From NCBI RefSeq assembly GCF_003018235.1, contig NZ_CP027437.1: a DNA stretch of 64,000 nucleotides; one strand, given 5' to 3'. This DNA comes from Escherichia coli (GTDB lineage Bacteria; Pseudomonadota; Gammaproteobacteria; Enterobacterales; Enterobacteriaceae). Of this stretch, positions 1,408 to 56,759 are shown piece after piece. The translations under genes and the position numbers were made by a program. The notes under the pieces were generated by a model that was given only the letters and a program-made list of their open reading frames with translations, searched no databases and was not told the origin of the DNA. Position 1 is the stretch's first letter. Each line of letters begins with the position of its first letter.

Positions 1408-1833
1408 ATGGAGATACGCGTATTTCGCCAGGAAGATTTCGAAGAGGTCATCACCCTTTGGGAGCGTTGCGACTTGCTGCGTCCGTGGAACGATCCGGAA
1501 ATGGACATCGAGCGTAAGATGAACCATGACGTCAGTTTGTTTCTGGTCGCTGAGGTAAACGGTGAAGTGGTCGGAACGGTGATGGGCGGTTATGACGGGC
1601 ATCGCGGGTCTGCTTATTATCTTGGTGTGCATCCAGAGTTTCGTGGGCGTGGGATTGCTAATGCGTTGCTTAATCGGTTGGAGAAAAAGCTGATTGCTCG
1701 CGGCTGCCCGAAAATTCACATCAACGTGCCGGAAGATAACGACATGGTGCTCGGAATGTATGAACGCCTGGGATATGAACACGCCGACGTGCTGAGTCTG
1801 GGTAAGCGTTTGATTGAAGATGAAGAGTACTGA
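1408..1833 (+). CDS. ypeA: GNAT family acetyltransferase
   Basis: ORF track 1297..1833; internal ATG at 1408 gives 141 aa starting [15 protein letters not shown]-12 length. Confidence 0.85.
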
Positions 1834-2269
1834 GTTTCATCCTGTCCATTATGATGCGCACGGTCGCCTGCGTTTACCCTTGCTCTTCTGGCTTGTGCTA
1901 TTGCTTCAGGCGCGAACCTGGGTGCTGTTTGTCATTGCCGGTGCGTCGCGCGAGCAGGGTACTGCGCTGCTAAATCTGTTTTATCCCGATCACGATAATT
2001 TCTGGCTGGGGTTGATTCCCGGCATTCCGGCGGTGCTGGCGTTTTTGCTGAGTGGTCGGCGGGCTTCATTTCCCCGTATCTGGCATGTGCTCTATTTTCT
2101 GTTGCTGTTGGCGCAGGTGGTTTTACTTTGCTGGCAACCGTGGCTGTGGCTGAACGGTGAATCCGTTAGCGGTATCGGGCTGGCGCTGGTAGTGGCGGAT
2201 ATTGTGGCGTTAATCTGGCTGCTGACCAATCGACGTTTACGCGCTTGTTTTAATGAAGAAAAAGAATAA
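1820..2269 (+). CDS. yfeZ: inner membrane protein YfeZ
   Basis: ORF track 1814..2269; hydrophobic; ATG at 1820 gives 149 aa; overlaps ypeA 3' end. Confidence 0.8.
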
Positions 2270-2270
2270 C

Positions 2271-2298
2271 GGCACTTTTTGGTGAATTTGCACTCCAA
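2271..2298 (+). promoter_or_regulatory. candidate sigma-E (RpoE) promoter for yfeY: GGCACTT - 16 bp - TCCAA
   Basis: Motif read directly; close to GGAACTT-N16-TCnAA; yfeY is a recalled RpoE regulon member. Confidence 0.45.
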
Positions 2299-2329
2299 GC
2301 AACGTTATTGAATAACCAAAGGAAGTGAC

Positions 2330-2905
2330 ATGAAATCGCTGCGTTTAATGTTATGCGCTATGCCGTTGATGCTGTCCGGCTGTTCCACGATGTCGTCAGT
2401 TAACTGGTCTGCCGCTAACCCGTGGAACTGGTTTGGGTCGTCCACCAAAGTGAGCGAGCAGGGCGTTGGTGAATTAACGGCGTCCACACCACTGCAAGAA
2501 CAAGCCATTGCCGATGCGCTTGATGGCGATTATCGCCTGCGCAGCGGAATGAAAACCGCGAACGGCAACGTGGTGCGCTTTTTTGAAGTGATGAAAGGCG
2601 ACAACGTGGCGATGGTGATTAACGGCGATCAGGGTACGATCAGCCGCATTGATGTGCTGGATAGCGATATTCCTGCTGACACCGGTGTTAAAATCGGTAC
2701 ACCGTTTAGCGACCTTTACAGCAAAGCATTTGGCAATTGCCAAAAAGCTGATGGTGATGATAATCGTGCCGTCGAATGTAAAGCCGAAGGCAGTCAACAT
2801 ATTAGCTACCAGTTCAGCGGGGAATGGAGTGGTCCTGAAGGGTTAATGCCTTCAGACGATACCCTGAAAAACTGGAAAGTCAGTAAAATTATCTGGCGGC
2901 GTTAA
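2330..2905 (+). CDS. yfeY: RpoE-regulated lipoprotein YfeY
   Basis: 191-aa ORF with lipobox LSGC after signal peptide. Confidence 0.88.
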   Translation: MKSLRLMLCAMPLMLSGCSTMSSVNWSAANPWNWFGSSTKVSEQGVGELTASTPLQEQAIADALDGDYRLRSGMKTANGNVVRFFEVMKGDNVAMVINGDQGTISRIDVLDSDIPADTGVKIGTPFSDLYSKAFGNCQKADGDDNRAVECKAEGSQHISYQFSGEWSGPEGLMPSDDTLKNWKVSKIIWRR

Positions 2906-2916
2906 TTTGCGTCTGA

Positions 2917-3900
<984 letters not shown>

Positions 3901-14568: not shown

Positions 14569-15028
<460 letters not shown>

Positions 15029-21044: not shown

Positions 21045-22031
21045 ATGATGCAGGATTTGCGTCTGATATTAATCATTGTTGGCGCGATCGCCATAATCGC
21101 TTTACTGGTACATGGTTTCTGGACCAGCCGTAAAGAACGATCTTCTATGTTCCGCGATCGGCCATTAAAACGAATGAAGTCAAAACGTGACGACGATTCT
21201 TATGACGAGGATGTCGAAGATGATGAGGGCGTTGGTGAGGTTCGTGTTCACCGCGTGAATCATGCCCCGGCTAACGCCCAGGAGCATGAGGCTGCTCGTC
21301 CGTCGCCGCAACACCAGTACCAACCGCCTTATGCGTCTGCCCAGCCGCGTCAACCGGTCCAGCAGCCGCCTGAAGCGCAGGTACCGCCGCAACATGCTCC
21401 GCGTCCAGCGCAGCCGGTGCAGCAACCTGCCTATCAGCCGCAGCCTGAACAGCCGTTGCAGCAGCCAGTTTCGCCACAGGTCGCATCAGCGCCGCAGCCA
21501 GTGCATTCAGCACCGCAACCGGCACAACAGGCTTTCCAGCCTGCAGAGCCTGTAGCGGCACCACAGCCTGAGCCTGTAGCGGAACCGGCTCCAGTTATGG
21601 ATAAACCGAAGCGCAAAGAAGCGGTGATTATCATGAACGTCGCGGCGCATCACGGTAGCGAGCTAAACGGTGAACTGCTTCTTAACAGCATTCAACAAGC
21701 GGGCTTCATTTTTGGCGATATGAATATTTACCATCGTCATCTTAGCCCGGATGGCAGCGGCCCGGCGTTATTCAGCCTGGCGAATATGGTGAAACCGGGA
21801 ACCTTTGATCCTGAAATGAAGGATTTCACTACTCCGGGTGTCACTATCTTTATGCAGGTACTGTCTTACGGTGACGAGCTGCAGAACTTCAAGCTGATGC
21901 TGCAATCTGCGCAGCATATTGCCGATGAAGTGGGCGGTGTAGTGCTTGACGATCAGCGCCGTATGATGACTCCGCAGAAATTGCGCGAGTACCAGGACAT
22001 CATCCGCGAAGTCAAAGACGCCAACGCCTGA
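21045..22031 (+). CDS. zipA: cell division protein ZipA (N-terminal TM, P/Q-rich linker, FtsZ-binding domain)
   Basis: ORF track 20994..22031; ATG at 21045 gives 328 aa starting [21 protein letters not shown]. Confidence 0.93.
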
Positions 22032-36483: not shown

Positions 36484-36516
36484 AAAAAAGCCGGGGAATG
36501 ATCCCCGGCTTTTTTA
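36484..36516. terminator. bidirectional intrinsic terminator between convergent pdeA and nupC
   Basis: AAAAAAGCCGGGGAATGATCCCCGGCTTTTTT. Confidence 0.75.
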
Positions 36517-39382: not shown

Positions 39383-40700
<1,318 letters not shown>

Positions 40701-51682: not shown

Positions 51683-53380
51683 TCAAAGCAATAACGTAGC
51701 CTGTGAGGCGACTGGGGTGCGTTGGTTAGGAATGTAAAACGCAATTTCCGTCCCCGGTTCCAGGCGGCGGATATGCAGCCCCTCGCCATACAATAACTTC
51801 ACGCGATGATGGACATTCAGCAGGCCAATTTTATTGCCCGGCATTTCGTTCGCTTCGACCCGCTCAATCACCTTTGGATCGATGCCGTGCCCGGTATCTC
51901 GCACCGCAATACGTACCCGATTACCGCACTCTGCAACGCTGATGGTGACAACGCCTTTACCTTTGCAAGGCTGGATACCGTGGACAATGGCGTTTTCCAC
52001 CAACGGCTGGATCAGCAGGCTGGGAATGCAGCAATTCACCTCTTCATCAATATCATAGATAACCGTCAGCTTGTCGCCAAAGCGGGCCTGCTCAATGGCA
52101 ATATAGTCTTTAATTTGATACAGCTCTTTTTTGATATCGATTTGCTCATCGTCTTTTAATTCAATGTTATAGCGCAGATAACGCGACAGATTAAAGATCA
52201 GCTGGCGAGCGGTATCCGGATTCAGACGGATTGACGATGAAATAGCGTTCAAAGCGTTAAACAGGAAATGGGGATTAATTTTGCTTTGCAGGGCGCGAAG
52301 CTCTGCCTTATTTGCCATTTCACGTAGCTGCTCGGCGCGTGAAACCTCCAGTTGCGTGGAGATGATTTGCGACAGACCGACCGCCATTTCCTGTAATGAT
52401 GACGTAATCTGATGCGCGTGGCAGTAGTAAATTTTCAGTGTTCCGGTCACAACGCCTTTCTCCCACAATGGGATCACCAGCATGGAATGAATCTCTGGTG
52501 TGCGGTGGGCTTCATCATTGTTTTTAATGATGATTTTTCCGTAATTCATCGCCTGTCGGGTAGTCGGGCTAATGAAGTCATCGCCATTCTGATAGTTGTG
52601 TTCACCCACGCCAACATAGGCCAGCACATGATCGGTATTGGTAATCGCCACCGCATCGGCATGAATATCATCGCGGATAATTTCACAAACTTTGCGTAAT
52701 GACTCGCTATTGACATGGCGAAACAGCGGCAGCGTTTTGTTGGCGATATCCAGCGCCAGCTTGGCCTGCCGCGCGGCGCTGGCCTCTTTTTCGCCCTCAA
52801 CGCTTTGCACCAGCAGCACAATAAAGCCGATACAGACGCTACCGAGGATCATCGGAATCCCGATTTTAGAGACGATATCGATCCCCAACGCGGTAGTTGG
52901 TGCCCAGACAATCACCAGAATCATGGTCAACGTTTCACATAACATGCCGCCGAGAATACCGACGCGCCAGCGCTGTGCTTTGGGGATTTTCAGGTTGATC
53001 CAGCCCGATATACAACCCGCCAGAATGCTGGTGATAAAGCAGGGGATCGCCGTCACGCCGCCGATATCAATTAAATACCGGTGAATACCCGCAATCACGC
53101 CGGTAATGATGCCTACCCACGGGCCAAACAGAATCCCGCCTGACATCACCGCGATAATACGAACGTTCACTAGCGAGCCTTCTACGGGAACGCCGGACCA
53201 GGTGCTGAACAGGGCGAACAGCGAGAAAATGGCGGTAACAGCGAGCAGCTCTTTTGGGGAGTGCGCCGACTTGTGCAACAGTTCGCGAAACAGGCGGATA
53301 CGGATGAGAAAGAACAGGCAGATAAGCATTAACGCTGCCCGATCGAAGACCGCCAGCAGCATGTTGAATATTTCGTGCAC
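51683..53380 (-). CDS. ypdA: LytS-type sensor histidine kinase
   Basis: 565-aa ORF, membrane N-terminus and His-kinase C-terminus. Confidence 0.88.
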
Positions 53381-53756
53381 GGGTGACTCTGAATAAGGAT
53401 TAAACCTCTATGATAGGTAACCTGAAGGCTGATGACCAGCAGGCCGTTTTTGAGGAAAAACCACAATTTTAAAAGGGGATTGAAAGATAAATGGTGTATT
53501 AGCAATGCATCTCTTGATAATGCACATCTGCTTGGTAAATTTATTGAAATTATAATGTTAATAAAATGAGTGGTAATTTTCTTGTTAGCGCAGATAAATT
53601 TCCTGTTTTTGAAGTGGAGTTCCTCATTTAAAGCCATTGATAAAAATGTTCTAAAACGCTGGACAGACAGAAATTAATCAGGCTATTTTCAAAACAGCCA
53701 CCATCGTGGCAGCGTCGCTCGGACGGTCCGGGCGCTAACGTTAATCTGAGGAAATT

Positions 53757-56407: not shown

Positions 56408-56759
56408 AGTTACCTTCTGTAGATACGAATTGTTGTATCGCAGAAGATTCCATGTCGACAGCGGTACACTCAATTGGTTGGGCCATCATGTACGACAATG
56501 GTTCCTGTAAAGAGTGTAAAGACTAGTCAGGACATAACCACGAGGAGCATGAATGCGGTGGCTCTACTTTATCACTGGCTGACTGCTTTCAGCTACTGAT
56601 TATTAATCGTGCAAAGTAAAAAATTTTCCGCACGCAATAGCGTTGCATTTAACGTGCTGTTTTCATTGATGCTTAGCAAAAATTGCCAGAGGTTAAGGAT
56701 TGTCTTACTATTAAAGTGACTGAAGTTACAGGTTTTTTAGCGCGGCAGGAGGTTGAGCT

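Follow-up and report, generated by a model that had tools for sequence, protein, structure and literature searches.

The gap between yfeZ and yfeY of Escherichia coli holds two short sequence blocks, GGCACTT and TCCAA, which raise the question of whether yfeY is transcribed from a promoter of its own that depends on the envelope-stress sigma factor RpoE (σE, or σ24). The locus was analyzed within a window of 64,000 nt, a stretch of E. coli chromosome with the local gene order amiA (minus strand), ypeA, yfeZ, yfeY, yfeX, and pbp4B (minus strand), whose positions 1800–3100 are matched in 5425 of the 5426 complete genomes of this species. Two bases, both upstream of the putative -35 element, distinguish the window from K-12 MG1655 between 2200 and 2340; promoter and leader are identical, and experiments in K-12 are directly applicable. 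Of the 5426 complete E. coli records, 5013 show an identity of 99% or more over the 106 nt that surround the site.

The original prediction had described the motif as GGCACTT and TCCAA, 16 bp apart and 32 bp upstream of the yfeY start, and this description proved exact in the window sequence (Table 1): GGCACTT, preceded by c, and TCCAA flank the 16-nt spacer tttggtgaatttgcac (2278–2293), and 31 nt separate the final A of TCCAA from the yfeY ATG. Since the yfeZ stop codon occupies 2267–2269, the entire motif falls into the 60-nt gap between the two genes, in sense orientation to yfeY. In the E. coli strains 510016 and PCP07083 (positions 331–476 of locus L092 and 1358–1503 of locus L093), a REP/BIME-type insert of about 146 bp separates the yfeZ stop from the yfeY -35. 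The insert stops 4 nt before GGCACTT; it leaves the core promoter intact and replaces the A/T-rich upstream region.

Table 1. Features of the yfeY locus in window coordinates, with conservation in the Enterobacteriaceae alignment.
Feature	Position	Strand	Conservation	Remarks
yfeZ 3' coding end			61%	
A/T-rich stretch, possible UP-element	2240–2270	+		ttttaatgaagaaaaagaataa; overlaps yfeZ 3' end and stop codon
-35 element GGCACTT (2271–2277) with conserved TTT (2278–2280)	2271–2280	+	96% (block)	consensus GGAACTTTT
Variable portion of the 16-nt spacer	2281–2291	+	39% (2281–2289)	
-10 element TCCAA (2294–2298) with conserved AC (2292–2293)	2292–2298	+	97% (core)	
Discriminator			33%	
Predicted transcription start region, conserved CGT	2303–2305	+	95%	
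Predicted 26-nt 5' UTR	2304–2329	+	41% (leader)	Shine-Dalgarno AAGGAAG at 2319–2325
yfeY coding sequence	2330–2905	+		DUF1131 outer-membrane lipoprotein, lipobox LSGC
Intrinsic terminator downstream of yfeY	2959–2990	+		9-bp hairpin AATGCCACG/CGTGGCATT, then T-run

The downstream open reading frame encodes YfeY, a protein of solved structure (PDB 2qzb) that matches Pfam DUF1131 and the NCBIfam equivalog “RpoE-regulated lipoprotein”, which is also its RefSeq annotation. Expression of yfeY increases 3.3-fold upon overexpression of rpoE (PMC2731931, Table 2), and the same paper marks the gene as earlier reported in three studies (Rezuchova, 2003; Kabir, 2005; Rhodius, 2006); yfeX showed no significant induction by rpoE overexpression (PMC2731931). 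Moreover, a block of autotransporter secretion raises yfeY together with rpoE-rseABC (PMC6850105), and an iModulon for envelope stress contains it alongside rpoE and bacA (PMC10665441). The expectation that yfeY encodes an envelope-stress-regulated lipoprotein agrees with the LSGC lipobox, the name of the protein family, and the published induction by σE. Nothing on yfeY was found in the supplements to the papers on Cappable-seq, SMRT-Cappable-seq, the sigma network, MicL, and Salmonella ChIP-seq, and a full-text literature search for the promoter sequence itself returned no match. Control of yfeY by σE is already known, to the point that the gene product is named after it, and the promoter described here has little significance beyond correct annotation.

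How far the motif itself identifies a promoter was assessed with a consensus pattern and a position weight matrix (PWM). The pattern GGAACTT-N16-TCNAA, with at most one mismatch, matches the window twice against 0.98 matches expected, and at least two matches occurred in 25 of 100 shuffled sequences. The PWM was built from ten σE promoters located in the K-12 sequence (rpoE, degP, rpoH P3, micA, rybB, fkpA, bamE, bamD, bepA, and bamC) and is independent of the yfeY site. The annotated 5' ends of the micA and rybB RNAs, which place +1 six nt behind the -10, bear out the geometry of these two controls. Compared with these controls, the yfeY -35 agrees with GGAACTT at six of seven positions, with the mismatch inside the AAC core: its third base is C, while the core is kept in all ten controls. 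TCCAA conforms to the TCNNA form that is common to all ten. A scan with an RpoE PWM, as suggested along with the original prediction, gave a divided answer: with 12.2 bits, the yfeY site ranks fourth among all 127,930 window positions when both strands are counted, but in dinucleotide-preserving shuffles (n = 200), 3.6 ± 1.9 sites per window reached or exceeded 12.2 bits. In leave-one-out scoring, the controls reached 12.4–18.5 bits, which places yfeY just under the weakest of them, at the low end of what known promoters score, because C replaces the core A of the -35 “AAC”. On sequence alone, the yfeY match is not above chance.

Three other sites in the window scored higher. The best PWM score, 21.3 bits, belongs to GAAACTT-16-TCAAA on the minus strand (14998–14971), 33 nt upstream of the yfeK GTG (14937). 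As yfeK is a published member of the σE regulon, this is almost certainly the yfeK promoter, and it served as an internal positive control of the PWM. The two further sites, one of 13.6 bits within zipA, some 190 nt before ligA (21883–21910, plus strand) and one of 12.9 bits at the start of pyrS, pointing to alaC (53365–53392, plus strand), are probably chance matches. Upstream of lpxP (ATG 56406), another published σE regulon gene, the PWM found no convincing site, and GGAACCA-16-CCCAA (56478–56505, minus strand), 71 nt upstream of the ATG, was the sole candidate found by eye; this PWM is accordingly less sensitive than the published model.

The yfeK region also differs from K-12 in gene content. 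A K-12 segment of 958 bp, which carries yfeS and the last yfeK codons, is absent at 14571/14572, so that the σE unit yfeK-yfeS is reduced to yfeK, which ends 2 nt from the cysM stop in this strain. Elsewhere in the window, the intergenic region between ypeC and mntH contains a 1.28-kb insertion (39387–40666) that is absent from K-12, is flanked by REP/naRNA4-like repeats, and encodes a 326-aa IS110-family DEDD transposase on the minus strand (39493–40473; Pfam PF01548 and PF02371). Its size and target suggest that it may be IS621, the bridge-RNA element. Conversely, this strain lacks the IS186C copy that K-12 carries between nupC and pdeA (around 36494–36505).

Given these statistics, the yfeY motif could be a chance look-alike without promoter activity, in which case yfeY would be transcribed from the ypeA promoter or from a weak start inside yfeZ, and its induction by σE would be indirect. 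This reading would fit the finding that, in 64 kb, pattern matches and PWM scores of this height are about as frequent as expected by chance, and it would fit the non-consensus C in the -35. The same holds for the lack of a terminator between yfeZ and yfeY in the window sequence, and for a map of transcription starts in unstressed, mid-exponential cells (Kim, 2012; PMC3415461), which places the only relevant starts 230 nt upstream of yfeY (a weak start of 7 reads, at about window position 2100) and upstream of ypeA (51 reads, at about 1244). Placement, however, favors a promoter: both consensus matches in the window lie 31–33 nt before the start codon, in sense orientation, of a gene published as σE-regulated (yfeY and yfeK), and the share of positions with comparable placement would, as a rough estimate, be about 2%. 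Position and conservation together raise the yfeY match above chance.

Conservation was followed through 80 orthologous loci collected from Enterobacteriaceae, with YfeY identities of 65–99%. Of 81 loci, 78 retain both boxes. Seventy-five of these have the form GG[CA]ACTT and TC[CA]A[AG], located 27–34 nt from the ATG and separated by 16 nt in 74 cases and by 15 nt in one, and three Pseudocitrobacter loci carry TGCACTT as -35. The motif is absent from the three remaining loci, namely from one Citrobacter strain with a different intergenic region of 203 nt, and from two Pseudescherichia-like genomes in which both yfeZ and the promoter are gone. In an alignment of 80 distinct sequences, built without reference to the motif, conservation rises sharply over the -35 block, the -10 core, and the CGT at the predicted start (Table 1). 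The bases G, G, A, C, T, T, T, and T of the -35 block are invariant in 68 anchored sequences, and positions -12 to -1 before the -35 are A-rich in most orthologues. Beyond this set, distant DUF1131 orthologues with 48–53% protein identity carry xAAACTT (TAAACTT or AAAACTT), 16 nt, and (AC)TCCAA or TCGAA, 38–40 nt from the ATG; in still more distant DUF1131 orthologues, nothing recognizable as the motif was found. One of the distant orthologues (L097) keeps the motif although yfeZ is absent.

This profile is the signature of a promoter that has two boxes, a spacer of fixed length, and a defined start, and such a two-block footprint contradicts the chance reading. Two blocks that are 96–97% conserved at a fixed spacing of 16 nt in dozens of genera, with changing bases between them, would not be expected of a random match, nor would a motif that survives both the loss of yfeZ in L097 and a REP insertion 4 nt upstream. 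Together with the three independent studies that, according to PMC2731931, list yfeY as σE-dependent, this makes a mere look-alike highly unlikely. Conservation in related genomes is also a criterion for true sites in Rhodius (2006; PMC1312014), which moreover reports a validation of the promoters that Rezuchova had identified. The yfeY promoter is a clean example of a site that is not callable by sequence statistics alone and is unmistakable by phylogenetic footprinting.

A conserved pair of blocks need not be read by σE, and the promoter of another sigma factor, i.e., σ70, σ54, σ28, or σ32, was considered. GGCAC is the core of the σ54 -24 element, and the -35 block resembles it accordingly; the spacer of many genera contains GCCGAT, which resembles a σ28 -10. 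A σ70 promoter was rejected, as a σ70-like hexamer pair is absent from 2200–2330. The σ54 candidate was rejected because the GC of the -12 element is absent at the required spacing, where E. coli has TG, while in Klebsiella the GC is too close by 2 nt, and the σ28 candidate because GCCGAT is conserved neither in Escherichia nor in Citrobacter and has no TAAA box at the right distance. The probability that a different sigma factor accounts for the blocks is close to negligible.

Alternatively, the blocks could be a transcription-factor site, or an RNA element at the 3' end of yfeZ or in the yfeY leader. Conservation does exceed the classical hexamers, as it includes TTT after the -35, AC before the -10, and CGT at the predicted start, and CGGCA...TGCCG could pair in many genera. 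This pairing is lost in E. coli, however, and the extra conserved positions coincide with extended σE logos (GGAACTTTT) and with the +1 motif. An RNA structure or Rfam element was rejected, since neither site nor leader matches any Rfam family and the folding energy is no better than that of shuffled sequence (z = 0.02 for 2262–2304; z = 0.40 for the predicted leader, i.e., no significant structure). A non-promoter element of either kind is thus very improbable. The interpretation that the motif is the RpoE-dependent promoter of yfeY, in agreement with the original reading of a -35/-10 pair, is supported by its geometry, by the two-block footprint, and by published regulon membership, and is held with high confidence.

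For σE promoters, whose spacers range from 15 to 19 nt, Rhodius (2006; PMC1312014) gives the motif GGAACTTTT and T/CGGTCAAAA, with a strongly preferred spacer of 16 nt, a discriminator of 5–6 nt, a distance of 26–27 nt from -35 to +1, and A/T-rich UP regions. By this geometry, the most likely transcription start of yfeY is the predicted +1 at G2304 (K-12 NC_000913.3 position 2551242), a base that is invariant in the anchored set and lies 5 nt downstream of the -10. A start at this position would imply a discriminator of 5 nt and a -35 to +1 gap of 26 nt, as σE promoters prefer, and AAGGAAG, seven nt before the yfeY ATG, is a good ribosome-binding site. The beginning of the predicted leader (2304–2316) forms a perfect palindrome, GTTATT-G-AATAAC, which is found in Escherichia only and is not conserved elsewhere. 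The start list from unstressed cells contains no start at the predicted σE position (Kim, 2012; PMC3415461), an absence that fits a stress-specific promoter and is not positive evidence for it.

At the other end of the gene, the terminator hairpin has a GC-rich stem of 9 bp, and hairpin and T-run are kept, with compensatory changes in the stem, in 65 of 79 orthologous loci. The conserved terminator and the lack of yfeX induction suggest that yfeY is largely a monocistronic unit, i.e., a stress-inducible gene that is insulated from yfeX by its terminator. As no terminator separates yfeZ from yfeY, basal expression of yfeY probably results from read-through from the ypeA promoter. For yfeX, a start 45 nt upstream of the gene has been listed (Kim, 2012; PMC3415461). 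This published start corresponds to window positions of about 2956–2957, behind a TAAAAT -10 and 2–3 nt upstream of the terminator hairpin (2959–2981), so that yfeX transcripts would open with a terminator-like hairpin; a second listed yfeX start lies after the T-run. Strain EC556 of E. coli and related isolates from pigs carry an IS200C copy between yfeY and yfeX (about 1307–2112 of locus L094).

A plausible course of events at this promoter can be outlined. In line with the established pathway, envelope stress frees σE from RseA, and the σE holoenzyme then contacts GGCACTT via sigma region 4 and TCCAA via region 2, over the 16-nt spacer. It would initiate at the predicted G2304; the resulting transcript, with its 26-nt leader, would be translated into the outer-membrane lipoprotein YfeY. 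To judge from the sequence and conservation of the terminator and from the uninduced yfeX, most transcripts would end at the hairpin at 2959–2990 before yfeX is reached.

The promoter is probably of modest strength because its core is sub-consensus, with C for A in the -35 and TCCAA for TCAAA in the -10. Conservation within the Enterobacteriaceae includes both deviating bases, the C of the -35 as well as that of the -10. The Citrobacter amalonaticus clade (L019, L020, and L023) combines a restored GGAACTT with a weaker -10, TCCAG, a paired departure from the GGCACTT/TCCAA of other genera. In three loci the -10 is improved to TCAAA and GGCACTT is retained, and the distant orthologues have regained A in the -35 and lost the leading GG. 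It is conceivable, though on these few independent events rather doubtful, that the yfeY promoter is held at a deliberately sub-maximal strength. If it were held weak, yfeY would be a threshold-type σE target that is switched on only at high σE activity. Alternatively, an additional factor might recognize the conserved -35 C. In either case, a conserved departure from the consensus is of possible interest for modeling the strength of σE promoters.

The yfeY site can be compared with the σE promoters characterized by Rhodius (2006; PMC1312014), which combine GGAACTTTT, a spacer of about 16 nt, TCAAA, a discriminator of 5–6 nt, and a purine at +1. It has the same spacing and a 26-nt gap between -35 and predicted +1, and, like them, it follows an A/T-rich region, precedes a gene for an envelope protein, and is conserved in relatives. 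Unlike them, it has C instead of a near-invariant A as third base of the -35, TCCAA as -10, and a PWM score at the low edge. The autoregulated rpoE promoter of K-12 (GGAACTT-16-TCTAA) shares the spacer length and a nearly identical extended -10 (CACTCTAA in rpoE, CACTCCAA in yfeY, the ACTCCAA form), but its -35 is perfect and its score is 18.4 bits, compared to 12.2 bits for yfeY. The yfeK promoter of the same window shares the architecture, with a start codon 33 nt away and a published regulon gene downstream, but is much closer to the consensus, scoring 21.3 bits where yfeY reaches 12.2.
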